Made by a program: the position numbers and the translations under genes. Shown here piece by piece: positions 2,764-64,000 of a DNA stretch of 64,000 nt (position 1 is the first letter of the stretch; each line of letters opens with the position of its first letter). The stretch spans positions 27,380 to 91,379 of the forward strand of contig JBGAUK010000003.1 of assembly GCA_044228695.1 (NCBI GenBank). The letters are read 5' to 3'. The stretch comes from Chromatiaceae bacterium (lineage in GTDB: Bacteria > Pseudomonadota > Gammaproteobacteria > Chromatiales > Chromatiaceae). Below the pieces are notes generated by a model. The model had not been told where the DNA came from. It saw only the letters and a list, made by a program, of their open reading frames with translations, and made no database searches.

Positions 2764-3194
2764 TAGTAGGAATCTTCGCTGTAGCGTTCGCGTAATACGG
2801 CTGCCAGGCGCGTCACGTCGTCAATGAAGTCGGGGATCAAGCGCAGCGTTTCCCTGGCAAAGTTTTCGCCGTAGTCATGGGCGGTATTGTTGCGGTTGTC
2901 GCGATAGGCAAACCAACGCTCCACTTCCTCGATTGTCATCAAGCCATGGGTGGCCGAAAGACGCAGCAGATCCTTGATGGGCGTGGCGTCGAGTGTTCTT
3001 GCGGCGTGGCCGTAATCGCGCAAGGCTTTTTTCAGCAGCTTGAAGCTGGTCTCCTGCGCCAATTCGTAGCCCTTGACGATGGCATTGCGAAAAATTTCCC
3101 GATCGATACTGTCCGCCGGGGCCTGCTCATAAAAGTTGAGAGACAACCGCAGGGTACCGATGCAGCGATTAAGATGGTCGGTATTCAGATTCAT
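2763..3194 (-). CDS. hepT: HEPN-domain protein, HI0074 / nucleotidyltransferase-substrate-binding family (HepT-type toxin)
   Basis: 143 aa. The Rx4-6H HEPN motif appears as RDNRNNTAHDY. The helical K/E-rich region SFKLLKKALRDYG is typical of the family. The gene sits immediately upstream of, and is translationally coupled to, the MNT gene. Confidence 0.85.
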   Translation of the reverse strand: MNLNTDHLNRCIGTLRLSLNFYEQAPADSIDREIFRNAIVKGYELAQETSFKLLKKALRDYGHAARTLDATPIKDLLRLSATHGLMTIEEVERWFAYRDNRNNTAHDYGENFARETLRLIPDFIDDVTRLAAVLRERYSEDSY

Positions 3195-3332
3195 GCTGCT
3201 GGCTCCTACACTGGGACAGGACCGATGAAGGGTTCGCCATGGAAGTAGATCTTTTGGTCGGGATCATCGGCGATTGACGCCTGCGACGGATCATCATTGG
3301 CAGGTCTCGCAGTGACCGCGTGCAAGGGAAGC

Positions 3333-6263
3333 TCAAGGGTCGTACTCCAGGAATGGATTCCGAGTCCCCTGACGGCCTTTGTCGGCTTGCGATGCCGCGG
3401 CGCGCCCACTGCCCGGGCCAGGTAGCGCCTTGCGGGCGCTATCCGCGGGTTGCGTTCTGGCCCCGGCGCGAGAGGGCAGTCCGGTGGTTCCGGGCCGGTA
3501 GGCGTCGAAGCGGGCGCGGGCATCGCCGAGTTCGAATTGTTGCCAGTCGTCCTCCATTTCGAGCGCGCCGACGAAGCTGTGCCAGCGGACCAGGAGCATG
3601 GCCTCGCGGCGGTCGTCATCGGCGTGCCCCTTGGCCTGGACACCGACCGCCCCACTGCCGATCGTGGCGTCCTTGAGCACGGCGCTGTCACCGTCCATGA
3701 CCAACTGGATGTGCCCGCCCAGGTTCTCGACCAGCAGCAAATCCTCGATCCAGCGGTGCTCGCCCCGGGCGTTGTCCAGCAGGGCGACGAAGGGCCGGGT
3801 GTCCTTAATGGTAATGGCGGCCTTCATGTCCAGATGCATCGGCTTGCGCCACAAGACCTTGGATTTTTCAAGTTCCAAATCGGCGTGCCAGTCAGGCGCC
3901 AGGGCGGATGCGGTTTCACCGGTTACCTTAAAACCCTTGAGTCCCAAGGTGGAGCCGGTGATATCGAACCGCATATCCGTCGCCGAGCCGCCACGGATCA
4001 GCAGGTCCAGCCGGATATCGCCAGTCATCTCCGCCTGGCTCAGCGCCACGCGCACATCCTTGGCGAGCAACAGCAACTCGCCCCGCAGACTCTTGGGGCC
4101 CAGTTGCAGATCGCCGACGAGACTGGCCTCGCCCGAGACTAGGGAGAGGGGGGCATGGGCGGGCAGGTAGGGGTTGTAGCTACTCATGGTACGGACCCGG
4201 GCCGAATGGAGTTTCAGGGCCATTTCCACCTTGCCCGCGTGGTCGGCGAAGGGGTCAGTGACCACGACATCGGCATCCAGGCGCACCCCGTCGATGCTCG
4301 GCTCCGACTCGTCCTTGCGACGCATGCGGGCATCGGTCAAGGCGATATTGAGGACCAGTCTGGGACGGTGGCCGTCCTGCTCCAAGGTCAGGGCCCCGCG
4401 CCCCAGACCCTCCACCCGGTGCTCCAGCAGCCCAAGCTCCAACTCCTCGGGCGGTAGCTGAAGCGTGGTTCCCGGGGCCGGCAGGCCATTGGCGAGCAGG
4501 ATCTCCGCATCGATCTCGGCCGCGCCCTTCAAGCTCAGGTTCAGCGGGCGGTGCAACAGTTCCGCGATCCAGTCGAGTCGTGAGAGGGTCAGGGTGACCA
4601 AAAGACGGCCATGGGTCGTCGCGAGCAGGGCCCCGAAACCCTGATCCGCCAGGGCCTTCGCCACGGCGCGCACCGGGCCCCCGGCCGCCTCCTCCGCCGA
4701 CAGGGGGATGCCGAGATTGCCGTCGTTGACTGCCAGTTCGGCCTGCCAGGGCTTGGGCGGAATCGGTCCCTTGACGTGCTTCGTCTTGGCCTTGGTCTTC
4801 ACCTTGGCCTGGGCCGCGGCATTGTCGAGCCGTAGCTTGGTACCGCTCAGGTCCAGCACCGCCTCGTCGGCGGTGGGAGCACTGGCAATTCTGGCCCGAA
4901 GTTGCAGAGACAAGTCGGTGGTAGCCTGGTAATCCCGGTAGCTCAGGTGGGCCTGGTCGGACGCCAGATCGAGTTCGAATCGCATGGTCTCGGGGGCAAC
5001 CACCACTTGGCCATTCACCCGACCCGACCCATCCAGGAGCCGCATCCCCCACTCGTCGGGTAGCAGGCGGTTGTAAACCCGGAGATCGGGTACCTCCATC
5101 GCCGGCAGGTTCAAGGTGAGGTTGAGGTCGGGCTTGCCACCGCGCGTCTCGATGTGCAGCAGGGCCTCTAGGCCATGGCCGGAGAAGAGGGTCAGTGCCG
5201 GGGTCTCGGCCGCCTCGGTCGCCGCGCCGGGGTGTTCCGCCAGCAGGGAGGCCTGGACCTCGTCAAAGCGGACCACCAGGTCCGCCTGATCCGCGTCGTC
5301 GGGATCGACCTTGAGTTCGATGGTGCCGTCGCCGTTAAAAGCATGGCGGGCAAGGGTCATCGCCAGCTCGTGGGCCTCGACGATCAGGTCGGTGCCGGGG
5401 AGCAGCTCGCCGTGGGAAAAGACCAGGCGCCCGCGCAGGCGGCCCTGGCCCTTGAGGTCCAGACCCGCCATGTCGCCCGTCAGCAGGGTCAGGAAATCCA
5501 GGTTCTGCACCGGCAGGTCAATTTCGGCATCGAACTCGGGCAGGATCAGTACCCCCAGGCCCCTGGCCTCGGCGATGACGAAGGGCGGCACCTCGATCTT
5601 GCCCTTGATCGATGCCGGGTCGGTCACGGGCTGGGCATCGCCAATCCGCAGCGAGGCGAGCACCAGGTCGAGGGCGCCCTCCCTCAGACCAAAGCGCCCG
5701 GCCCCGGTATCCAGGCTGAAGCTGCCGCGCACCTCGCCGGGCAGGGTGCCGCGTACATGGGACACCCAGAAGGCATGATGCCCCTGGACATGGATATCGG
5801 CGATTTCCAGCAAGAGGTTGCCGCCTTCCTCCTCCGGTGCCGGTTCCGCAAGGGCCTCGGGGTCGCGGTTGCGGATGACCGGGAAGTGGTGCCGGATGGC
5901 GGCGTCGTCTTGGGCGGGGCCCGAGCGCGGCCGCAGCCGCAGGTCGATATCGATCAGGTCCAGATCATGCACGCGCACCAGGCCCTTGAGCAGCGGTCGC
6001 AAGGAGACCGCCGCCGCCGCGCGCTCGGCATCGACCTGCCATTGCTCGGTCGGGGTCTGGCCGTCGGCGGCGAAACCCCGGAACTCCACGCGCAAGGGGT
6101 ACCAGCTCCAGGCCCGATCCCAGCCGATGGCGAGACGATCGGGCCGCAGGCTGTTCAGGTAGGCCTGCGTCGCGGGCAGGTTCAGGGCCAGATTCACCCC
6201 GATCAAATAAAGGGCCACCAGAATAAGGATGGCCGAGACCAGCCGGGAAAACCCCTTCTTCAT
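3333..6263 (-). CDS. Large membrane-anchored protein (976 aa), possibly AsmA/TamB-like envelope protein; function unknown
   Basis: The N-terminal anchor is MKKGFSRLVSAILILVALYLIGVNLAL. The rest is hydrophilic with many repetitive D-L-x-L/G-x-L beta-strand-like segments. An AGGAA Shine-Dalgarno lies 7 nt before the ATG, which is only 12 nt after the dnaE stop. GC3 is high. The family assignment is weak. Confidence 0.75.
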   Translation of the reverse strand: MKKGFSRLVSAILILVALYLIGVNLALNLPATQAYLNSLRPDRLAIGWDRAWSWYPLRVEFRGFAADGQTPTEQWQVDAERAAAAVSLRPLLKGLVRVHDLDLIDIDLRLRPRSGPAQDDAAIRHHFPVIRNRDPEALAEPAPEEEGGNLLLEIADIHVQGHHAFWVSHVRGTLPGEVRGSFSLDTGAGRFGLREGALDLVLASLRIGDAQPVTDPASIKGKIEVPPFVIAEARGLGVLILPEFDAEIDLPVQNLDFLTLLTGDMAGLDLKGQGRLRGRLVFSHGELLPGTDLIVEAHELAMTLARHAFNGDGTIELKVDPDDADQADLVVRFDEVQASLLAEHPGAATEAAETPALTLFSGHGLEALLHIETRGGKPDLNLTLNLPAMEVPDLRVYNRLLPDEWGMRLLDGSGRVNGQVVVAPETMRFELDLASDQAHLSYRDYQATTDLSLQLRARIASAPTADEAVLDLSGTKLRLDNAAAQAKVKTKAKTKHVKGPIPPKPWQAELAVNDGNLGIPLSAEEAAGGPVRAVAKALADQGFGALLATTHGRLLVTLTLSRLDWIAELLHRPLNLSLKGAAEIDAEILLANGLPAPGTTLQLPPEELELGLLEHRVEGLGRGALTLEQDGHRPRLVLNIALTDARMRRKDESEPSIDGVRLDADVVVTDPFADHAGKVEMALKLHSARVRTMSSYNPYLPAHAPLSLVSGEASLVGDLQLGPKSLRGELLLLAKDVRVALSQAEMTGDIRLDLLIRGGSATDMRFDITGSTLGLKGFKVTGETASALAPDWHADLELEKSKVLWRKPMHLDMKAAITIKDTRPFVALLDNARGEHRWIEDLLLVENLGGHIQLVMDGDSAVLKDATIGSGAVGVQAKGHADDDRREAMLLVRWHSFVGALEMEDDWQQFELGDARARFDAYRPGTTGLPSRAGARTQPADSARKALPGPGSGRAAASQADKGRQGTRNPFLEYDP

Positions 6264-52758: not shown

Positions 52759-54983
52759 CGCAGTGGCGCCGGCCGGGCCTGATCCCGGTGATCCTGTTGT
52801 TGGTCGTGCTCCTGGTCGCCCTGGACCTGATGAGCGGCGCGGTGCAGAACTCCGAATCCCTGAGCCGGGCCTTCGTGCCCCTCATGTTCATCGTCATCAT
52901 CGGCCTGCTGGTACTCGCCGCCATGGTGCTGACCAATCTGGTCAGACTGGTACAGGGTTATCGCCACAAGGTCGCCGGTTCGCGCCTCACCGGTCGTCTG
53001 GTCCTGCTGTTCGCCCTCATCTCACTGCTGCCCGTGGTCGTGGTCTATTACTACTCCCTGGGCTTCCTGTTACGGGGTATCGACTCCTGGTTCGACGTCG
53101 AGATCGACCAGGCCATGGTGGATGCCCTCACCCTCAATCAGGCCTCACTGGATCTCAATCAGCGGGTCTTGATGCGCTATACGCAACAACTCCTGGCGGG
53201 CATCGAGGACAGTTCCAGCACGGCCCTGGCCTTGAGCCTCGGCCAGTTGCGGCAACAGGCGGGGGCCCTGGAGATTGCTGTCTTCGGGGCCAATGGCCAG
53301 GTGCGGGGCAATTCCAGCGAGGACCCGACTGTCCTGGTGCCCAACCTGCCCGATCGCGAATTGCTGCGGCGGGCCAGTGGTGGCGCCAATCAGGTCGAGC
53401 TGGAGACCGCCGCCAACCAGGAGATGGTGGTGCGGGTGCTGGTGGCGGACCCGGTGGGTCGCAACCTGGTCATGCAGGCCATATTCCCGACCTCCGAACG
53501 CATCAGCGAACTGGCGGCGAATCTGGAGAAGGCCTACAACCGCTACAAGGAGCTGGCCTATCTGCGCCAGTCCCTGAAGCTGAGCTTCTCCCTCACTCTC
53601 TCCCTGGTCCTGCTGTTCGGCCTCATGGCCGCCCTGCTCGCCGCCTTCCATACCGCCTGGCGCCTGGTGGAGCCGGTGGCGGCCATTGCCCGCGGCACCC
53701 GCGCCGTGGCGGAGGGCGACTACGAGCAGCGCCTGCCCTTACCCGGTCACGAAGACGAACTCAGCTTCCTGGTCGCCTCCTTCAATTCCATGACCCGGCG
53801 CCTGGCTCGGGCCCGGGACGCGGCGGCGCGCTCCCAGCAGGCCGTCGAGGCCGAGCGCGTTTATCTGGAAACGGTGCTGGGGCGTCTCTCCTCGGGCGTG
53901 GTCGTCCTCGACGGCGAACACCGCCTGCGGACCGCCAACCCGGCGGCCCATCAGATCCTGGGACTGACGGAACCGGACATGAGCGATGGCGGCCTGGACG
54001 CCCTCAATGCGACCCATCCTGGCCTGGTGGCCTGGGTGGACGCGGTGCGGACCCATCTGGAGGGGCACGCCGAATGGCGTCAGGAGGTCGTCCTCTTTGG
54101 CGCCGAAGGCCGCCAGGTGCTGATGTGTCGCGGCAGCCCCCTCATCCATCCCGATGGCCAGGAGAGCGGCCATGTGGTGGTCTTCGACGACATTACCCGC
54201 CTCATCACGGCCCAGCGCGACGCCGCCTGGGGCGAGGTGGCCCGGCGCCTGGCCCACGAGATCAAAAATCCCCTGACCCCCATCCAGCTCTCGGCGGAGC
54301 GGCTGCGCCACAAGCTCCTGACCAAGCTGCCGGAGGACGATGCCCGGGTGGTGGACCGCGCGACCCATACCATCGTCCAGCAGGTCGAGGCCATGAAGGC
54401 CATGGTCAACGACTTCTCCAACTATGCGCGCTCCCCCAAGCTGGAGCCGGAACCCCTGCGCCTGGATCGGCTGGTAGCCGAGGTGATGGAACTCTACCGC
54501 TCCGTCCCGGCGATCAAAATCGACCTCCAGGTCGGCGAGGCCCTCATCAAGGGGGACCCCCTGCGTTTGCGCCAGGTCATTCACAATCTGGTCAAAAATG
54601 CCCTGGAGGCGGTAGAGGACAAGCCCCAGGCCCGGATCCGCATCGCCACCCGGCGCCTGGACGACCAGGATCGGCCCCAATTGGAACTCTCGGTGGAGGA
54701 CAATGGCGGCGGGATCGACGAGACTCTCATCGACCGCCTCTTCGAACCCTATGTCACCACCAAGGCCAAGGGCACGGGGCTGGGCCTGGCGATCGTCAAG
54801 AAGATTATCGAGGAACACGGGGGTATCATTTGGGCGGAGAATGCCAAGGGCGGCGCCCGCGTGGCGACGCGCCTGCCCTTATGGCGCGATGAACATCACG
54901 AGGAAGTTCCCAAGGAACCGCCGGTTGCCCTGGCCACCCCGGCCAAGAGCCCCAGCGCCCACCCAGACCGAGAACAAGCATGA
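52740..54983 (+). CDS. ntrY: Sensor histidine kinase NtrY
   Basis: N-terminal TM bundle, HAMP, PAS, the H-box RLAHEIKNPLTPIQLS, and an ATPase domain (NLVKNALEA; GTGLGLAIV). Confidence 0.9.
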   Translation: MAVATLTQWRRPGLIPVILLLVVLLVALDLMSGAVQNSESLSRAFVPLMFIVIIGLLVLAAMVLTNLVRLVQGYRHKVAGSRLTGRLVLLFALISLLPVVVVYYYSLGFLLRGIDSWFDVEIDQAMVDALTLNQASLDLNQRVLMRYTQQLLAGIEDSSSTALALSLGQLRQQAGALEIAVFGANGQVRGNSSEDPTVLVPNLPDRELLRRASGGANQVELETAANQEMVVRVLVADPVGRNLVMQAIFPTSERISELAANLEKAYNRYKELAYLRQSLKLSFSLTLSLVLLFGLMAALLAAFHTAWRLVEPVAAIARGTRAVAEGDYEQRLPLPGHEDELSFLVASFNSMTRRLARARDAAARSQQAVEAERVYLETVLGRLSSGVVVLDGEHRLRTANPAAHQILGLTEPDMSDGGLDALNATHPGLVAWVDAVRTHLEGHAEWRQEVVLFGAEGRQVLMCRGSPLIHPDGQESGHVVVFDDITRLITAQRDAAWGEVARRLAHEIKNPLTPIQLSAERLRHKLLTKLPEDDARVVDRATHTIVQQVEAMKAMVNDFSNYARSPKLEPEPLRLDRLVAEVMELYRSVPAIKIDLQVGEALIKGDPLRLRQVIHNLVKNALEAVEDKPQARIRIATRRLDDQDRPQLELSVEDNGGGIDETLIDRLFEPYVTTKAKGTGLGLAIVKKIIEEHGGIIWAENAKGGARVATRLPLWRDEHHEEVPKEPPVALATPAKSPSAHPDREQA

Positions 54984-56347
54984 GTGCAGCCTACATTCTG
55001 GTGGTCGATGACGAGCCCGACATCCGCGGCCTGGTCCAGGAGATTCTGGAGGACGAGGGCTATGCGGTGGCCACCGCCGAGAACGGCGCCGCCGCCCGCC
55101 GCTCCCTGCGCGAGCGCCGCCCCGACCTGATTCTCCTGGACATCTGGATGCCCGATCTGGATGGCATCAGTCTCCTCAAGGAGTGGTCCGAGGACGATGG
55201 CCTGCCCTGCCCGGTGATCATGATGTCCGGTCATGGCACCGTGGAGACGGCGGTGGAGGCGACCCGGCTGGGGGCCTACGACTTCCTCGAAAAGCCGCTA
55301 TCCATGGCCAAGCTGCTGCTGACCACGGAGCGCGCCCTGGAGGCCGACAAACTGGTCCGCGAGAACATCGGCCTCAAACGCCGCACCATCATCGCCCATG
55401 AGCCCATCGGCCGCGGCACCGCCATGCAGCGCCTACGGGAGCAGGTCAAGCGTATCGCCCAGCACGATACCTGGGTCCTGATCACGGGCGAGGCTGGCAG
55501 CGGTCGCGAGACCTTCGCCCGTTACCTTCACTCCCAGAGCGCCCGCCGGGATCGGCCCTTCGTCGACCTCGGCGTCTCGGGGATCGCCCGGGCCAACGCC
55601 GCCCGGGAACTCTTCGGCGGCGAACAGGATGGGCATGTCCACTATGGCGGTCTGGAGCAGGCCGCCGGGGGCACCCTGCTCCTCGACGAGGTCGGGGACA
55701 TGGACCAGGGGGTCCAGGGCCAGTTGCTCGGTGCCCTGGATACGGGCTCCTTCCTGCGCGTCGGCGGCACCGAACCGGTTAACATCGACGTGCGCCTCAT
55801 CGCCGCCACCCAGCACAACCTGGAGGACGAGGTGCGCGCCGGGCGCTTCCGCGAGGACCTCTTCTACCACCTCAACGTGGTACCCCTGAGCGTCCCCGCC
55901 CTGCGGGACCACAACGAGGACATTCCGGAACTCCTCAACTACTACGTGGATTACTTCGCCACCCACGAAAAGCTGCCCTACCGGCGGTTCAGTGTCGGCG
56001 CCCAGAACTACATGCGCAATTACCCCTGGCCGGGGAATGTGCGCGAACTCAAGAACCTGGTCCAGCGCGTCCTCATCCTCGGTGCTGGTGACGAGATCTC
56101 CCAGGACGAGGTCGAAAATACCCTGGGGGCCACCACCAGCACCCCGGCGCCGAACCTAGAGGGCCTCATGTCCTTCGACCAGCCCCTGCGCGAGGCCCGG
56201 GAACAGTTCGAGAAGACCTATCTCGAATACCAGCTCGAAAAGCACGGCGGCAATGTCAGCAAGATGGCCAAGGAGGCGGGTATGGAGCGCACCCACCTCT
56301 ACCGGAAGCTGCGCTCCCTGGGGATCGAGATCAAGGAGCGCCGTTAA
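54980..56347 (+). CDS. ntrX: Response regulator NtrX (NtrC family)
   Basis: The receiver domain has [14 protein letters not shown]. The AAA+ Walker A is GEAGSGRE. There is no GAFTGA loop ([15 protein letters not shown] instead), as reported for NtrX. A C-terminal HTH is present. Confidence 0.88.
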
Positions 56348-56349
56348 GC

Positions 56350-57723
56350 ATGAAGATCATCATCCTGGGCGGCGGTCAGGTGGGCCGGTCCGTGGCGGCG
56401 AATCTGGCGGGAGAGGCCAACGACATCACCGTCGTAGATCGTGATCCCGAAATACTGCGGGAACTCCAGGACCGCTTCGACCTCCGGACCATCATAGGAC
56501 ATGGCGCCCATCCCGACGTGCTGCAGCGGGCCGGGGCCGAGGACGCCCATATCATCCTGGCGGTCACCAATAGCGACGAGACCAACATGGTCGCCTGCCA
56601 GGTCGCCTATACCCTCTTCCATACCCCCACCCGCATCGCGCGGGTGCGCTCCCCCGGTTTCCTGGAACACCCGGAACTCTTTGCCCCCGGCGCCCTGCCC
56701 ATCAATGTGTGCATCAGTCCGGAGCAACTCGTCACCCAATATATTCTGCGGCTGCTGGAGCACCCCGGCAGCCTTCAGGTGCTGGACTTCGCCAACGGGC
56801 GGGTGCGGCTGGTGGCGGTCAAGGCCCGCGAGGGTGGTCCCCTGATTGGCCATGCCTTGCGCACCCTCTACGATCACATGCCCGAGGTCGAGACCCGGGT
56901 CGCGGCCATCTACCGCCAGGACCGGGCCCTGGAGCCAACGGGTGACACCATCATCGAGGCCAACGACGAGGTCTTCTTCGTCGCCGCCCCGGCCCATATC
57001 CGCACCGTCATGGGCGAATTGCAGCGGCTGGAAAAGCCCTACAAGCGCCTCATCTTCGCGGGCGGTGGCAACATCGGCACCCGGCTCGCCCGCGCCACCG
57101 AGAACGACTTTCGGGTCAAGGTCATCGAGCGCGACCTGACCCGCAGCAAGCAGATTGCCGAGACCCTGGAGCGGACCATCGTCCTCCATGGCGACGCCGC
57201 GGACGAAAACCTGCTGCGGGAAGAGAATATCGAGGATACCGACGTCTTCTGCGCCGTCACCAACGACGACGAGGACAATATTCTCTCCGCCCTCCTGGCC
57301 AAGCGGCTGGGGGCGCGCAAGGTCATGGCCCTCATCAACCGTCCGGCCTACGTGGATCTGATGCAAAGCGGTGGCATCGACGTGGTCATTTCCCCCCAAC
57401 AGGCGACCATCGGCAGCCTGCTCAAGCATGTGCGCCGCGGGGACGTGGTGGCGGTGCATTCCCTGCGGCGCGGCGCGGCCGAGGCCATCGAGGCCATCGC
57501 CCATGGCGACGCCAAACTGAGCAAGGTCATCGGTCGCTCGATCGACCAGATCAAACTCCCGGCCGGGACGACCATTGGCGCCATCGTCCGGGGCGAGGCG
57601 GTCCTCATGGCCCACCACGACACCCTCATTCAGGCCGAGGATCACGTCATCCTCTTCCTCCAGGACAAGCGCCGGGTGGCCGAGGTCGAGAAGCTGTTCC
57701 AGGTGCCGGTGACCTTCCTGTGA
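56350..57723 (+). CDS. trkA: Trk potassium-uptake system NAD-binding subunit TrkA
   Basis: Two tandem RCK/Rossmann units, IILGGGQVG and IFAGGGNIG. Confidence 0.95.
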
Positions 57724-57781: not shown

Positions 57782-59233
57782 ATGAAGCCCTTCGCCGTCC
57801 AGAAGGTTTTGGGGCTGCTGCTGATGCTGTTTAGCCTGACCATGTTGCCGCCGCTACTGGTGTCCCATCTCTACCAAGACGGCACGGCCCAGCCCTTCCT
57901 CGGCGCCCTCCTCCTCCTCCTCGGCCTGGGCGCCATGATCTGGCTGCCCGTCTGGCAACGCCGCGAGGAACTCAAGCTGCGGGACGGCTTCATGGTGGTG
58001 GTCCTCTTCTGGACCGTACTGGGGCTGTCCGGCGCCCTGCCCTTCATCCTGTCGGAGGAACCTCACCTATCCGTGACGGACGCCGTCTTCGAGTCCGTCT
58101 CCGGCCTGACCACGACCGGGGCGACGGTCATCGTCGGCCTCGACGACCTGCCGCCGTCCATCCTCTATTATCGCCAGCAGCTCCAGTGGCTGGGCGGCAT
58201 GGGCATCATAGTGCTCGCGGTCGCCGTCCTGCCCATGCTGGGGATCGGCGGCATGCAGTTGTACCGGGCGGAGACACCCGGGCCCATGAAGGACAGCAAG
58301 CTGACGCCCCGCATCACCGAGACCGCCAAGGCCCTCTGGTATATCTATCTGGGGCTGACTATTGCCTGCGGTCTGGCCTACTGGCTGGCGGGCATGACCC
58401 CCTTTGACGCCATCGGCCATGCCTTCGCCACCGTCGCCATTGGCGGCTTCTCCACCCATGACGCCAGCATCGGCTATTTTGACAGCGACCTGATCGAGAT
58501 GATCGCCGTCATCTTCATGCTGATCTCTGGCATGAATTTCGCGCTGCATTTTGTTGCCTGGAATCGTAATAACCTGCGGGGCTACTGGCTGGACAGCGAA
58601 TTCCGCTTTTATCTGGCCCTCATGGGGGCCACGACCGCGGTCGTTTGCCTCTGCTTGTATCTGTCGGGCACCTATGCCGGCGGGTACGACTCCTTGACTC
58701 AGGGCCTGTTCCATACCGTCTCCATTGCCACCACCACCGGCTTTACCACGACCGCCTTTTATGACTGGCCGGCCTTCCTGGGCATCTTGCTGATCTTCAG
58801 CAGCTTCGTCGGGGGGTGCGCCGGCAGCACGGGCGGCGGCATCAAGGTCATTCGCTTTCTGCTCCTCATCAAGCAGGGCCTGCGCGAGATCGAACGCCTC
58901 GTCCACCCCAATGCCCAGATCCCGGTAAGGGTCGGTGGGCGGAGCGTCAACCACCGCGTGGTCGATGCCGTCTGGGGTTTCTTTTCCCTCTACGTCGCCA
59001 GCTTCACCCTCATGTACCTGGCCCTGGCCGCCACTGGCCTGGACCTCACCACCGCCTTCTCCGCCGTCGCCGCCAGCATCAATAACCTGGGCCCCGGTCT
59101 GGGCGATGTCGGCGCCCATTTCGCCGGCCTCGGCACCACCGCCAAGTGGATCCTCTGCTTTGCCATGCTCCTCGGCCGGCTGGAGGTCTTCACCCTTCTG
59201 GTGCTGCTGACGCCCGCCTTCTGGCGGACCTGA
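57782..59233 (+). CDS. trkH: Trk potassium-uptake system membrane subunit TrkH
   Basis: 483-aa polytopic protein with repeated selectivity-filter-like segments (SGLTTTGAT, TTTGFTT, GGCAGSTGGGIK). Confidence 0.94.
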   Translation: MKPFAVQKVLGLLLMLFSLTMLPPLLVSHLYQDGTAQPFLGALLLLLGLGAMIWLPVWQRREELKLRDGFMVVVLFWTVLGLSGALPFILSEEPHLSVTDAVFESVSGLTTTGATVIVGLDDLPPSILYYRQQLQWLGGMGIIVLAVAVLPMLGIGGMQLYRAETPGPMKDSKLTPRITETAKALWYIYLGLTIACGLAYWLAGMTPFDAIGHAFATVAIGGFSTHDASIGYFDSDLIEMIAVIFMLISGMNFALHFVAWNRNNLRGYWLDSEFRFYLALMGATTAVVCLCLYLSGTYAGGYDSLTQGLFHTVSIATTTGFTTTAFYDWPAFLGILLIFSSFVGGCAGSTGGGIKVIRFLLLIKQGLREIERLVHPNAQIPVRVGGRSVNHRVVDAVWGFFSLYVASFTLMYLALAATGLDLTTAFSAVAASINNLGPGLGDVGAHFAGLGTTAKWILCFAMLLGRLEVFTLLVLLTPAFWRT

Positions 59234-59237
59234 ACCC

Positions 59238-60758
59238 TCAAGGCGCCCGGGTTGAAACCCGCTCCACCCATTGGCTGGTGGAGGCGCTCAGGGTGTCCAG
59301 CACGCCAGCGGGGTAAAGGCCGGCGGCCAGGATGGGCAGGCTGAAGGCGATAGCCACCAGGAGTTCCCGGGGGCGCAGATCGGCGGCGGCACCAATGGCA
59401 TTGTGACCCAAGGGACCGAAGAAGGTCCGCCGATAGCCGTCGAGGACATAGGCCGCGCCCAGCACCATGGCCAGGAGGGCAGCCAGCCCGGCCCCGGTAT
59501 GAGTATGCAGCGCGCTCATCAGGATCAGAAACTCCGCCGGGAAGCCGGAGGTGCCGGGTACCCCCAGCGACGCCAGGGATAGAAAAAAGAAAAAGGCGGC
59601 CAGCAGGGGCATGGAACGGGCCACGCCGCCGAGGCTGATCAGGTCCGTGGACCCCAGGCGCAGATTCAGGAAGCGGGTCAGCAGAAAGAGCCCGCCCGCG
59701 ACCAGGGGGAAGTTGAGGAGCTGGAACAGAGCCCCCTGGACCCCCGGCTGGCTCAGGGAGGCAATCCCCAGCAGTACCAGGCCGACATGGCTCAGGGAGG
59801 CATAGGCCAGCAGCCGGCGCAGGTTGGTCTGGCCCATGGCCGCCAGGGCCCCATAGAGGAGGCCGATCGTGCCCAGACCGGCCAGCAGCCAGTGGAATTC
59901 CTGGGCAGCGCCAGGCGCCAGGGGCAAGGCGAAGCGAATCAGGCCATAGGCCCCCACCTTGAGGCCCGTGATGAGGGCCGCCACGGTGGCGGGCCCCTCC
60001 ATCGCCACCACCGGCAGCCAGGTATGCAGGGGGAACACGGGGGTCTTGACCGCGAAGCCGGCCAGCAGGAGCAGGAAGACGCTGGTCTCCAGGCCCTGGG
60101 CCAGGGGTGTCGTAAGCAATTCCCGATAATCCCAACTCAGCCCCGCCGGGATCCCGGCCCCGGTGACCTCGGCGTGATTGAAGGCCAGCAGGATGAAGCC
60201 GAACAGCAGGGGCACCCCGCCCGCCAACATGAAGAGGCTGTAGTTGACCGCCGCATAACGCCGGTGAGGTCCCGGTCCCCAGAGGCTGATGAGAAAATAG
60301 ATTGGGATCAGGGTCATCTCCCAACAGAGGAAGAAGAACATCAGGTCCAGGGCGCAGAAGATGCCCAACAGGGCGCTGGCCAGCAAGAGCATGAGGCTAT
60401 CGTGGAGGCGACGCAGGGTCCGGACACCGGTCCAGGAGGCGAGGATGGTCCCCAGAAACAGCAGAAGGGTCAGGGGGGGGAAGAGGACCGAAATACCATC
60501 CACGCCAATGAGGTAATGGACGTTCAGGCTCGGAATCCAGGTCGTCTCCTCCACCAACTGGAAGCCGGCCTCGGCGGGATTGAAGCGCCAGACCACCGCC
60601 AGGGAAAAACCCAGCGCGATTAGCAGGCTGCCGGGCATGACCCAGCGCGACAGGCGCGCCCCGGGCACCAGCCAGACCACCAAGGCCCCGACGAGAGGGG
60701 TCAGCAGCATCCAACTCAGGAGGGGCCAATGGGACAGGAGGCTCGGGGTATCAGGCAT
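59238..60758 (-). CDS. Complex-I antiporter-like subunit, NuoM/MrpD type (canonical motifs retained)
   Basis: TM5 FFFLCWEMTLIPIYFLISLWG and TM7 FAVKTPVFPLHTWLP...LITGLKVGAYGLIRF. The probable start is the ATG at 60758 (MPDTPSLLSHWPLLSW), with GAGG upstream. The track ORF starts at 60812. Confidence 0.88.
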   Translation of the reverse strand: MPDTPSLLSHWPLLSWMLLTPLVGALVVWLVPGARLSRWVMPGSLLIALGFSLAVVWRFNPAEAGFQLVEETTWIPSLNVHYLIGVDGISVLFPPLTLLLFLGTILASWTGVRTLRRLHDSLMLLLASALLGIFCALDLMFFFLCWEMTLIPIYFLISLWGPGPHRRYAAVNYSLFMLAGGVPLLFGFILLAFNHAEVTGAGIPAGLSWDYRELLTTPLAQGLETSVFLLLLAGFAVKTPVFPLHTWLPVVAMEGPATVAALITGLKVGAYGLIRFALPLAPGAAQEFHWLLAGLGTIGLLYGALAAMGQTNLRRLLAYASLSHVGLVLLGIASLSQPGVQGALFQLLNFPLVAGGLFLLTRFLNLRLGSTDLISLGGVARSMPLLAAFFFFLSLASLGVPGTSGFPAEFLILMSALHTHTGAGLAALLAMVLGAAYVLDGYRRTFFGPLGHNAIGAAADLRPRELLVAIAFSLPILAAGLYPAGVLDTLSASTSQWVERVSTRAP

Positions 60759-60889
60759 GTTGGGCCTCAAGTGCCGGGGGGGTATCGCCCAGCGGGACGA
60801 TAAAGACGTCACCGCGTTCCAGGACGCCTGGCGACCGGCGCCGCCGTGGCGAGCAAAGTGTTAGGGTTAGCCGCGGCCGGCCATCGGGA

Positions 60890-62398
60890 TCAGGGCTGGG
60901 CATAGTGGGCGCTCAAGGTCGCCAGAGGCACATCGATCAATTCTAGCCAGGGATGGGAGTAGAAGCCCACCCCCAGCAGGACGGCGATGACGGCCCCGGA
61001 CACCAGCCACTCCGCCAGACCCAGGCGCTCCACCGGGGCCTGGCCCTCCGGGCTGGGCCCCAGGAAGGCGCGCTGGAAGGCCCAGAGCAGAAAGCCCGCC
61101 GCCAGCAGATTCCCCAGGGCGGCGGCGATGGTCAGCAGGCCGCCAAACCGGGCGATGGCGGCCTCCAGGACCAGATGGGCGGCGTCGAAGCCCGGCGTGC
61201 CTGGCATGCCGATAATGGACAGGCCACCCACCAGAAAGGCGATGCCGACGAAAGGGATCTGGTCGAATAGCCCACCCAGTTCGGTGAGTTGGGTGGTCTT
61301 GGTGCGGCGATAGACCAGACCGGTCATGAAGAGTAGGGCCGCCACCGCCAGACCAAAGGTCACCGCTAGCATGACGCTCCCCTGAAAGGCCAGATGATCC
61401 AGGGTGAAGAGGCCAAGGACGATCAGGCTGGTATGAGAGACGACGGCAAAGGCCAACAGCCGGCGCAGGTTTTCCTGCACCATAGCCAGCAGGGCCGCGT
61501 AGAAGATACCGACCACGGCGAAGGCGACCACGAAGGGCTGCCAATACTGCACCGCCTCGGGTACAAGGGGCAGGACGAAGCGGAGCAAGCCATAGATGCC
61601 GATCTTGAGTCCCAGGAGCAGGGTCGGGGCCACGGCGATGTTGCCGTGCTCGGCTATCTGAGGCAGCCAGCCGTGCATGGGAAAGAGGGGGGTGCGGATG
61701 GCCAGCCCGTAGAACAGCAGGAAAAAGACCAGGGTCTGGAATTCGGACCCCACCCGGGCCCCTTGAAGCTCCAGGAGATCGAAGGTCCAGACGCCGCCAC
61801 CGACGTGAGCATGGCCCCAGCCCAGGATGAGGGTGCCGACCAGCAAGAGGGACAGGCCCGTGCCCATGAACTTGATATAGGTCTTGATGGCCTGGTCCAT
61901 GCGGGGCGAGGTCGCCCATAACTTCAGCAGGAGCCCGATGAGGCCCGTCTGGAGGGCGGCGGCGAGCACGAACCACAGCAGGTTCAGGGTCGTGAACATC
62001 AGCATCAGGCTGGATTCGATGGCCAGGATCAGGGCCATCAACCGCCAGGGGGGCCCCAGGCCCCGCACGGGCCCATAGAGGGACACCAGCAGGATGATGA
62101 GGGCCGTCAGGAGGATAAAGAGGATGCTGACACCATCCACGGCGGCGTGGTAGTCCAGCAGGCCTGGCAGGCTCAGGTGCTCGGCGAACTGCATGGCGGC
62201 ATTAGTGGGGTCATAACCTCGATAGAGGAGGATGGCCAGCAGCAGTTCGAAGCTGGCTAGGATGACCCCGGCGAAGGTCGCCAGGGACCCCCGGCGCAGG
62301 GCCAGCACCACCAGGGCCCCCAGCAAGGGCAGCAGTTGCAGGACCGCCAATAGTGGCCAGGCGGCCTGGCTGTCCCAAGGGATGCTGATCGGGTTCAT
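60890..62398 (-). CDS. Complex-I antiporter-like subunit, divergent NuoM/N type
   Basis: The fold-level motifs are present (PLFPMHGWLP, LLGLKIGIYGLLRF). The TM5 WE pair is replaced (LLWFVLAAALQTG) and the TM7 Lys is Arg (LAIRTP). The start lies 1 nt after the upstream gene stop. Confidence 0.85.
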   Translation of the reverse strand: MNPISIPWDSQAAWPLLAVLQLLPLLGALVVLALRRGSLATFAGVILASFELLLAILLYRGYDPTNAAMQFAEHLSLPGLLDYHAAVDGVSILFILLTALIILLVSLYGPVRGLGPPWRLMALILAIESSLMLMFTTLNLLWFVLAAALQTGLIGLLLKLWATSPRMDQAIKTYIKFMGTGLSLLLVGTLILGWGHAHVGGGVWTFDLLELQGARVGSEFQTLVFFLLFYGLAIRTPLFPMHGWLPQIAEHGNIAVAPTLLLGLKIGIYGLLRFVLPLVPEAVQYWQPFVVAFAVVGIFYAALLAMVQENLRRLLAFAVVSHTSLIVLGLFTLDHLAFQGSVMLAVTFGLAVAALLFMTGLVYRRTKTTQLTELGGLFDQIPFVGIAFLVGGLSIIGMPGTPGFDAAHLVLEAAIARFGGLLTIAAALGNLLAAGFLLWAFQRAFLGPSPEGQAPVERLGLAEWLVSGAVIAVLLGVGFYSHPWLELIDVPLATLSAHYAQP

Positions 62399-62399
62399 C

Positions 62400-63971
62400 T
62401 CAGAGAATGACCGCGAAGGTGGCGAGAATCATGAGGACGAGGTAGCGAGGCCGGGCGAGCAAATCCTCGACCTGGTTGGCATGCTCGCCCAGGCGGCGGA
62501 TGGCCTCCAGCAACCCTTGCCCGCCACCACGTAGCACCAATCGTTGCTCGAACCAGTAGAGGACGTTGGCCACCCGCTCCAGGGTACGCCCCAGGAGGCC
62601 CCGGCCGCGCACGATGGTCTCATCCGCCGTTGCCATGAGCCAACCCTCCTCCCCATCCGGCGCGATGCCCAGGGAGGAAAGTTCCAGGGCCTGGCCGGGC
62701 AGGCCGACGATGCGACTGACCACCTTCCCGTCCAGATCCATGACGTCGCGGGCCATGGCCTGGGCGGGTCGCGCCAGGAAGGCGTCCGCCAGGGCATCGA
62801 GCCAAAAACCCTGCAGGGCCGCCTCCTGCAGCCCGCGCCGCCTCGCCAGCCAGGCGGGGACCGGCCGCGCGGGCCGGCTGACGCGCTGCATCAGGGCCGG
62901 GGCATGCAGGAACTGATAGGCCCGCCAGAGGGCGTGCAGGGCCAGATGCCAGGCCGCCAGGCTATACCAGCCCAGGCCGATCCAGAGAAACATGAGGCCC
63001 ACCTGAGCGGTGGTGGAGAACATGAGAGAACTCTTGACGTCCGTCCTTGCCAGGCCCACCAGCCAGCCATAGAGGGCCGTGAGGGCGCCCAACAAGGCTA
63101 TCAGGCTGGCGATGGCCGGGGTTGTCTCCAGCAAGGGCTCCAGACGGATGAGCAGGTAAACCCCGGCGTGCACCATGAGGGCGCCATAGAAGATGGCGCT
63201 GGAGGGGGTGGGTCCCTCCAGGGCGCGAGCGACCCAGGGGGCAAAGGGGAGTTGCGCCGACTTGGCCAGGGCCGGTAGCAGGAAGGCCAGGGCGATGAGA
63301 TCCCCCTTGATCGGGTCCAGGGTCTGATCTGGCTGGAGGGGCCAATCGCTGCCGCCCATCCAGAGATAGGCGAAGGAGATCCCAAGCAAAAATCCGGCAT
63401 CGCCAATGCGGTTCGCGATGAAGGCGCGCTGGGCATTAGCGACCGCCACGGGGCGCTCGAAGTTATAGGCTATGAGCAGATAGGAGGCCACCCCCGCCAA
63501 CTCCCAGCCGATGAAGACCAGCACGGCGTTGCCTGCCATGACAATCAGCTCCATGGCCCCCATGAAGAGCGACAGAAGCAGAAAAAAGCGCGGAAAGCCC
63601 GCCTCCCGGTGCAGGTAGTTCACCGAGAACCGCAGGGTGATGAGGGCGACAAAGGCCACCAGCAGCAGCAGAGCCAGCCCCAGCGCATCCAGGGTGAAGA
63701 CGATATCCACCCGCAAGTCACCGCTCACCAGCCAGGATCCGACCCGGACCTGACCGGGGGGCCCCATCACCAGGGCCTGCATACCGGTTAAGATCGCCAG
63801 GCCGAGGGACAGGGCCGCCGCTCCAACCGCGACCCGCGCGGTCATGCGCTCCCCCGCCTCTCCCCGGTTACCCAGGAGGACATAAGCGCCGGCGATCCAG
63901 GCGGCAGCCAGCAGGGGCAAGAGGGGTATCAGCCAGGCATATGCAAACATGGGATCAGGTTCAATCGCCAA
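62400..63971 (-). CDS. Complex-I antiporter-like subunit, NuoL/MrpA type, with a shortened core and a long hydrophilic C-terminal tail ending in one TM helix
   Basis: LIPLLPLLAA at the N-terminus, TM5 FIGWELAGVASYLLI and TM7 LAKSAQLPFAPWVARALEGPTPSSAI. The track start is the TTG at 63971; the ATG at 63950 (MFAYAWLIPLL) is an alternative. Confidence 0.85.
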   Translation of the reverse strand: MAIEPDPMFAYAWLIPLLPLLAAAWIAGAYVLLGNRGEAGERMTARVAVGAAALSLGLAILTGMQALVMGPPGQVRVGSWLVSGDLRVDIVFTLDALGLALLLLVAFVALITLRFSVNYLHREAGFPRFFLLLSLFMGAMELIVMAGNAVLVFIGWELAGVASYLLIAYNFERPVAVANAQRAFIANRIGDAGFLLGISFAYLWMGGSDWPLQPDQTLDPIKGDLIALAFLLPALAKSAQLPFAPWVARALEGPTPSSAIFYGALMVHAGVYLLIRLEPLLETTPAIASLIALLGALTALYGWLVGLARTDVKSSLMFSTTAQVGLMFLWIGLGWYSLAAWHLALHALWRAYQFLHAPALMQRVSRPARPVPAWLARRRGLQEAALQGFWLDALADAFLARPAQAMARDVMDLDGKVVSRIVGLPGQALELSSLGIAPDGEEGWLMATADETIVRGRGLLGRTLERVANVLYWFEQRLVLRGGGQGLLEAIRRLGEHANQVEDLLARPRYLVLMILATFAVIL

Positions 63972-64000
63972 TCAAAATGGGGTCCAGGGGTTCCATGCTG

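Follow-up and report, generated by a model that had tools for sequence, protein, structure and literature searches.

What is the function of three tandem genes for complex-I-type antiporter-like subunits that stand at the right end of a 64,000-nucleotide stretch from a Chromatiaceae bacterium (assembly GCA_044228695.1)? This stretch, hereafter the window, is G000:C128:27380-91379 (contig JBGAUK010000003.1), and window coordinates are used unless stated otherwise. A sequence-only reading had taken the three genes for a stand-alone L-M-M module, with an Mrp-like cation antiporter and a DAB- or Cup-like CO2-hydration module among its candidate roles. We find instead that they are the last three genes of a five-gene operon that includes a gene for DabA, and our verdict from the sequences is that this operon appears to encode a DAB variant of five subunits, conserved and so far uncharacterised.

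No carbonic anhydrases other than the DAB complexes are known to be driven one way by protons, and two structures are now being used to understand how the coupling operates. A widespread relative that alters each residue singled out by these structures, and adds three complex-I-type channels, is a natural experiment on the coupling of ion flow to CO2 hydration. It also informs how antiporter-like subunits communicate without a redox module. DAB2 is a heterodimer and DAB1 a heterotrimer (10.64898/2026.03.13.711513; 10.64898/2026.05.01.722082; 10.1101/476713). A 2024 review of dissolved inorganic carbon toolkits mentions no larger DAB form (PMC10880623), and in the literature we found no study of the five-gene form beyond a neighbourhood note of 2017 (PMC5700660).

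Gene content and conservation of the operon

Contig C128 extends 5.6 kb past the right edge of the window. Following it rightwards, as the sequence-only reading had proposed, revealed DabA/DUF2309 and a fourth antiporter-like gene (Table 1). The open reading frame (ORF) that had been seen to enter the window from the right, ending in MEPLDPILIGD-stop at 63961, does exist; it belongs to dabA, the sole DabA gene of the genome, and the fourth NuoM-like gene, Mup, lies before it. The operon order is Mup (NuoM-like), DabA, Lshort (short NuoL-like), Mmid (NuoM-like) and Mlast (NuoM-like), and little space separates neighbouring genes: Mup and DabA overlap or are at most 37 nucleotides (nt) apart, and the dabA stop is within 11 nt of the Lshort start. 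ORF and Pfam profile analysis confirmed that the three window genes are intact, tandem Proton_antipo_M genes on the minus strand. The gaps described for them, 1 nt between Lshort and Mmid and 131 nt between Mmid and Mlast, are also correct; the second is 77-131 nt depending on the Mlast start, of which the ATG at 60758 is the probable one. Lshort matches NuoL profiles over the first ~360 profile positions only, and Mmid (302 bits) and Mlast (437 bits) exceed the NCBIfam NuoM subfamily cut-off of 263.8 bits.

Table 1. Features of the operon and its flanks, in window positions (an L002 position is the window position minus 58620; aa, amino acids)
Feature	Position	Strand	Description
Mup	L002:8636-10108 (window-equivalent 67256-68728)		NuoM-type, 490 aa; Proton_antipo_M E 1.2e-69
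dabA, whole gene	G000:C128:91340-94684 = L002:5341-8685 (window-equivalent 63961-67305)	-	Pfam DabA PF10070, 787 bits, E 2.9e-236
dabA, 3' end	63961-64000	-	part in the window; rest of gene beyond window edge
Lshort	62400-63971	-	523 aa, Proton_antipo_N + Proton_antipo_M (E 1e-39); truncated NuoL/NdhF-like, DabB-equivalent
Mmid	60890-62398	-	502 aa, Proton_antipo_M E 1.8e-35; full-length but degenerate NuoM-like
Mlast	59238-60812	-	longest ORF 524 aa, Proton_antipo_M E 2.5e-57; NuoM-like
trkH	57782-59233	+	Pfam TrkH 328 bits, NCBIfam TrkH 652 bits; convergent, not part of system
gltX, 3' part	upstream of Mup		cut by contig end

The same genome carries a separate canonical nuoH...L-M-N locus on contig C183 and a separate mrpA/mrpD pair on contig C177. 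DabA and Mup upstream show that the trio does not stand alone, and with nuo and mrp on other contigs it belongs to neither of these. The standard nuo or mrp operon that might have lain on the right flank was not there, and this candidate was ruled out by the same genes. NuoA-K, hydrogenase and MrpB/C/E/F/G genes are absent in and beside the cluster, as had been said of most of them, and the gaps leave no space for them. Since the small Mrp subunits are missing, an Mrp identity is excluded; of the roles first proposed, the CO2-hydration module is the one that is supported.

A DabA scan of species-representative genomes returned at least 577 relatives, of which the best 80 loci were fetched and their ORFs classified by best BLASTP match to the query genome's own paralogues. 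In place of the A-B or A-B-C composition of the DAB family, all 59 loci with enough contig to be complete hold five co-linear genes, in the order Mup-DabA-Lshort-Mmid-Mlast and on one strand, down to 50% DabA identity. The taxon range comprises sulfur-oxidising Gamma- and Betaproteobacteria plus Magnetococcales. By record title, the carriers are Chromatiaceae, Sedimenticolaceae, symbionts of bivalves and tubeworms such as Candidatus Thiodiazotropha, Thiohalomonas, Thiothrix, Acidiferrobacterales, Sulfuricellaceae and Magnetococcales. Public sources label the DabA of this operon merely 'DUF2309' or 'YbcC'.

Variants of the arrangement also occur. In a Thiothrix sp. metagenome-assembled genome (MAG; L074:9941-21900) the DabA-Lshort pair is tandemly duplicated (Mup-DabA-Lshort-DabA-Lshort-Mmid-Mlast); the second DabA shares only 41% identity with the query, and both copies score above the DabA cut-off. 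A degraded copy (L050:4996-8235) has Mup and DabA each split into two ORFs, and Lshort, Mmid and Mlast were not detected although the contig runs 8 kb further. A 7.7-kb contig binned as 'Candidatus Bathyarchaeota archaeon' (L025, JAIVTC010000400.1) has Mup-DabA-Lshort genes that are 52-68% identical to those of the Gammaproteobacteria, and is most likely a mis-binned bacterial contig.

The catalytic subunit

The longest dabA ORF encodes 1114 aa, with a probable length of ~1093 aa, compared with 827 aa for the DabA2 of DAB2 (DabA2-DabB2, Halothiobacillus neapolitanus, PDB 9rd0). Both belong to PF10070 and share the same four zinc ligands, as C592, D594, H783 and C798 align to C351, D353, H524 and C539 of 9rd0_A (phmmer E 1.3e-71). 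These residues, which form the Cys, Asp, His, Cys site of beta-carbonic-anhydrase (beta-CA) type found in the DAB family, are invariant in 68-69 of 69 five-gene-type DabA sequences, and the alignment shows the predicted zinc site to be intact. As in DAB2, a hydrophobic hairpin (residues 685-708) lies between two beta-CA-like halves, and the Gly-Lys after it (K706 here) is shared with DAB1-type DabA.

The positions that structural work has singled out are different. The Leu658 position of DabA2, at the transition state and described in both preprints as strictly conserved and mechanistically important (10.64898/2026.03.13.711513; 10.64898/2026.05.01.722082), is occupied by His921 in 69/69 five-gene-type DabA, compared with Leu in all of 18 ordinary DabB-(DabC)-DabA loci from the same order that served as controls. 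At the position of Glu444 in the membrane finger, essential in vivo in DAB2, all 69 sequences have an apolar residue (Ala, Leu, Thr or Val) where the ordinary DabA have Glu (18/18), and the alignment of the finger region is gap-free between two anchors common to both types. A Foldseek search with the AlphaFold2 (AF2) model of DabA (pLDDT 79) gave no significant match in a PDB library to 2026-04-08 that seemingly lacks 9rd0.

The membrane subunits

Like DAB2, the operon has a NuoL-like PF00361 partner in the gene adjacent to dabA, and in both systems transmembrane helices (TM) 1-11 of this partner follow NuoL; unlike in DAB2, with its two genes, there are five genes here and DabA precedes the partner. 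The best PDB match of Lshort is the cyanobacterial NdhF1 (6hum_F, 217 bits), compared with 110 bits for DabB2; matches span residues 6-364 only, and the scores class the subunit with NdhF1, NuoL and ND5. Its 11 TM helices (residues 9-363) give way to a tail of ~150 residues, hydrophilic and in part amphipathic, which leads to one last TM helix (508-522). In the AF2 model (pLDDT 82) the core superposes on NuoL/ND5/NdhF at 1.9-3.7 Å, and tail helices lie at 391-422, 458-479 and 485-506, before the terminal TM helix. The last two have hydrophobic moments (muH) of 0.50 and 0.56, against 0.22 +/- 0.11 in shuffles, and tail length stays within 150-167 residues. The model thus shows Lshort as a predicted NuoL fold that stops behind TM11 and continues into a conserved amphipathic tail, closed by an anchor helix. 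Tail and anchor stand in place of TM12-15, which Lshort lacks and which in DabB are rearranged around the finger. The tail looks like the lateral helix of NuoL with its anchor, a feature of the L-type subunit in the complex I arm, and may contact other subunits in a similar way; unlike the complex I subunit, Lshort has no second half-channel, and its 523 aa contrast with the long MrpA and its MrpB-like extension.

Individual residues of Lshort also set it apart from ordinary DabB. The His-x3-His motif of TM11 and the Arg/Asp pair of TM6 are common to DabB and NuoL, whereas the extended TM11 motif is His-x3-His-x3-Arg in Lshort and His-x3-His-x3-Lys in ordinary DabB, and TM8 has His in place of the DabB Asn (18 control loci for both). 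The TM5 Glu is kept in 64 of 65 Lshort sequences, where DabB of the same order has His, Ile, Asn or Met (Ile151 in DabB2). The His, Glu and Arg differences are the same relative to DAB1.

Three NuoM-like proteins complete the membrane part (Table 2). Judging from orthologue sequences, Mup and Mlast are shown to keep every residue of a putative canonical proton channel, in the Glu/Lys/Lys/Glu pattern of NuoM, and Mmid does not; in Mlast all four are invariant in 57/57 orthologues. The sequence-only reading had called two of the three window subunits atypical, and rightly so, as residue counts and AF2 model agree. The best PDB matches of Mup are NuoM and NdhD1, at ~313 bits each, and the best NuoM scores are 273 bits for Mlast and 167 bits for Mmid, the weakest of the three M-type genes. 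All three scored with NuoM, NdhD and ND4, and no NuoN-like subunit is present among the operon proteins.

Table 2. Canonical channel residues in the four antiporter-like subunits, counted over 57-66 orthologues per subunit
Position	Mup	Mlast	Mmid	Lshort
TM5 Glu	Glu, all	Glu, all	none (0/57)	Glu (64/65)
TM7 Lys	Lys, all	Lys, all	Arg (57/57)	Lys
TM8 Lys	Lys, all	Lys, all	Lys	His
TM12 Glu	Glu, all	Glu, all	Ala or Val	helix absent

In a quick IQ-TREE analysis of 82 sequences, with few outside references and one NuoL reference, Mup, Mmid and Mlast all fall inside the NuoM clade (support 99), with NuoN outside and Mup next to NuoM. Mmid is sister to Mlast on a long stem branch (1.89). The topology (MrpA,(NuoL,(Lshort, DabB))) groups Lshort with DabB (SH-aLRT 93, on long branches), whereas raw similarity places Lshort nearer NdhF1/NuoL than DabB2, and we treat the suggested sister relation as not decisive. 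The profile of DabC from DAB1-type loci aligns with Mlast and Mup over their C-terminal halves (hhalign probability 85-86%, E about 5e-6), which fits the published placement of DabC where NuoM sits (10.64898/2026.05.01.722082).

Distribution and relation to carboxysomes

We surveyed 150 genomes of the order at >= 90% completeness, which are related, so that counts are not independent. DabA of at least 51% identity over full length was taken as five-gene type, and more distant DabA as ordinary. The five-gene type is found in 40/150 genomes and ordinary DabA in 39/150, and the two essentially never coexist, which fits equivalent roles. Bacterial microcompartment (BMC) shell genes are present in 50/150 genomes, in 37 of the 39 with ordinary DAB and in none of the 40 five-gene-type carriers. 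In this survey the five-gene type was therefore not found alongside carboxysome genes, unlike DAB2. Within one genus (g3), 21 genomes have the five-gene type without shell genes and three have DAB1-like genes beside shell genes. Our sampling of the distribution consists of this order and 49 scattered carrier genomes. Of the latter, 47 have a single DabA, and we found one carboxysome-like shell cluster, one weak match and one Eut microcompartment. The last had looked like a carboxysome exception and was rejected as such: in this gammaproteobacterial MAG (G158:C71; L101:6100-18200), EutA/B/C, aldehyde dehydrogenase, PTA and seven BMC-domain matches lie ~10 kb upstream of the operon, and mark an ethanolamine-utilisation microcompartment.

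The query genome (83% complete) contains three RuBisCO large-subunit homologues, and no shell gene was found in it. A SulP/STAS transporter lies directly upstream of the operon on the same strand in 12 loci, and phosphoribulokinase (PRK) and malate dehydrogenase are near it in 7 loci each; the SulP and PRK genes point to inorganic-carbon metabolism. The near-exclusive occurrence in autotrophs without carboxysomes raises the question of what purpose an energised bicarbonate pump has there, and the answer to this physiological question matters for how chemosynthetic symbionts and sediment sulfur oxidisers fix carbon. It is also relevant to the engineering of CO2 uptake in crops or production strains.

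Proposed function and alternatives

Besides DAB2, four known arrangements resemble the operon. DAB1 (DabA-DabB-DabC, Thermocrinis albus cryo-EM, 10.64898/2026.05.01.722082) also has a third membrane subunit in the NuoM place beside NuoL, but its DabC is half-size with hydrophobic residues at the channel positions, whereas here three full-length NuoM-like proteins are present, two with complete channel residues. The cyanobacterial NDH-1MS/MS' complexes (CupA/B, NdhF3/F4, NdhD3/D4) likewise place a CO2-hydrating protein on a pair of NdhF(L)-type and NdhD(M)-type subunits, which is in keeping with the NdhF1 match of Lshort and the equal scores of Mup. However, they differ in that the operon has neither an NDH-1 core (NdhA/B/C/E/G, Q-module) nor a redox input, its catalytic DabA is unrelated to CupA, and its locus holds only DabA and four PF00361 genes (no search aimed at the Cup family was made). 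The complex I arm (NuoL-NuoM-NuoN) and Mrp share the tandem antiporter-like subunits, but the operon has no NuoN-type subunit, NuoH/A/J/K, peripheral arm or Mrp small subunits. Finally, the neighbourhoods of 'Clade C' ybcC (COG3002) that Klimchuk et al. noted in 2017 (COGNAT, PMC5700660) have the same arrangement as the operon: ybcC stands upstream of the nuoL homologue, and additional genes of COG1008 (NuoM) and COG0659 (SulP) are close by; that note is one sentence on gene neighbourhood with no subunit analysis, and predates the recognition of DabA as a carbonic anhydrase.

We consider it probable that the five-gene operon encodes an enlarged, multi-channel DAB-type complex for ion-driven, one-way CO2 hydration, most plausibly serving carbon capture without a carboxysome. 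In this complex DabA would dock on Lshort through its apolar hairpin, as DabA does on DabB in the solved DAB complexes, and the Lshort tail would run along the neighbouring M subunits, as the lateral helix of NuoL does in complex I. Lshort would supply only the cytoplasmic half-channel. Because Lshort lacks TM12-15 and the DabA hairpin lacks the carboxylate with which DAB2 completes its channel, the ion path would continue laterally and be completed by the adjacent NuoM-like subunits, held by the Lshort tail. Mup and Mlast would be working channels and Mmid a transmission or scaffold element, as DabC, and protons (or cations) flowing inward would power a one-way CO2 hydration that yields bicarbonate in the cytoplasm. 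A Calvin-cycle autotroph without a carboxysome would probably use the complex to capture inorganic carbon, and the purpose could be to raise the total inorganic-carbon pool, to recapture CO2 or to supply bicarbonate.

Several points weigh against this explanation. Carriers in the order survey have no carboxysome shell genes (0/40), so the classical use of a bicarbonate pool would be missing, and the two ordinary beta-CAs of the query genome, one of them next to a RuBisCO gene, would dissipate a bicarbonate pool held out of equilibrium. Every coupling element named for DAB1/DAB2 differs (Leu658, finger Glu444, TM5 Glu, TM11 Lys), and direction, ion and stoichiometry are therefore not transferable from DAB2. 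The structural predictions are of single chains, the subunit contacts are inferred, and no experiment on any five-gene-type member was found in the literature.

On one hand, these differences could point further than an enlarged DAB complex. We hold as a tentative possibility, short of an even chance, that the operon represents a mechanistically distinct class of membrane-energised carbonic anhydrase, and not just DAB plus extra subunits. Because Lshort lacks TM12-15 and has Arg for the TM11 Lys, and the hairpin has no carboxylate, the proton path would turn sideways into the NuoM-like neighbours, like the central axis of complex I, and more than one ion might be used per CO2. The catalytic-site His, absent from DAB1 and DAB2, would also count towards such a class. 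In Calvin-cycle bacteria that have no carboxysome, with many sulfur-oxidising symbionts among them, it would act as the inorganic-carbon pump. If true, the complex would also model the membrane arm of complex I in minimal, redox-free form.

On the other hand, the lack of carboxysomes in carriers could mean that the five-subunit complex is no RuBisCO pump, and mainly makes bicarbonate for biosynthetic carboxylations and pH balance (as MpsAB in Staphylococcus aureus) or runs reversibly. Heterotroph DAB homologues serve such roles (PMC6689103), and the His at the DAB1/DAB2 Leu position is a hydrogen-bond donor, as in canonical beta-CAs (10.64898/2026.03.13.711513), so that DabA might work more like an ordinary carbonic anhydrase, with the membrane arm doing no more than gating or tethering its activity. 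We regard this as unlikely: a five-subunit machine seems costly in a genome that already has two conventional beta-CAs, and most carriers of the system are autotrophic sulfur oxidisers, where it neighbours PRK and SulP genes; within one genus it alternates with carboxysome-linked DAB. The presence of four Mrp/complex-I-type subunits could also suggest that the membrane arm is primarily a cation/proton antiporter of the Mrp kind or an ion pump, which would move Na+/K+ or generate membrane potential using the proton of CO2 hydration, with DabA as an accessory that senses CO2/bicarbonate or supplies protons. A sodium link has been argued for MpsAB (10.64898/2026.03.13.711513), and energy conversion was the original proposal for such operons in 2017 (PMC5700660). 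However, MrpB/C/E/F/G or NuoA/J/K-like small subunits are missing at the locus, the three M-type subunits stand in the NuoM clade and not with MrpD, the free energy of CO2 hydration is too small to drive pumping, and a separate mrp locus is present on C177; we find this role highly improbable. That the L-M-M trio is independent of DabA, or the tail of a standard nuo/mrp operon, was suggested only by the in-window view, which ends 40 nt into dabA, and has next to no chance of being right given the 11-nt junction between dabA and Lshort, the synteny of five genes in 59/59 complete loci and the canonical nuoH...LMN on another contig.

Neighbouring genes and other observations

The cluster is convergent with trkH, as had been described; the two stops are 4 nt apart, and trkH marks the 3' end of the operon. 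A promoter scan of the 11-kb operon stretch found no sigma-70-like site, and terminator-like hairpins in the same stretch are no more frequent than chance, and uninformative on transcript ends.

Two unrelated families of ~360-380-aa ORFs adjoin the operon, one in 9 loci (Thiodiazotropha) and one in 7 (examples are L060:17894-18964 and L031:999-2144). In these 16 loci they give weak matches to CsoSCA_cat (25 bits) and LCIB_C_CA (22 bits, below its cut-off), and may be extra carbonic-anhydrase-like partners. The query genome has no homologue of them, and they were not used as evidence.

Elsewhere in the query genome, a beta-CA gene (3010-3477) lies ~1.6 kb from a RuBisCO large-subunit gene (452-1378) on the same strand of contig C133 (C133:452-3477), and looks like a non-carboxysomal RuBisCO-CA pairing in a genome with a DabA complex. 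Distinct from the nuo, mrp and DabA loci, C113:33467-35812 is one 781-aa ORF with two separate Proton_antipo_M matches, which may be a fused or unusually long antiporter-like protein. On the plus strand of the window, trkH ends a run that begins with an NtrC-type sigma-54 response regulator (54980-56347) and trkA (56350-57723), and the same regulator family recurs near the five-gene operon in 10 related loci.

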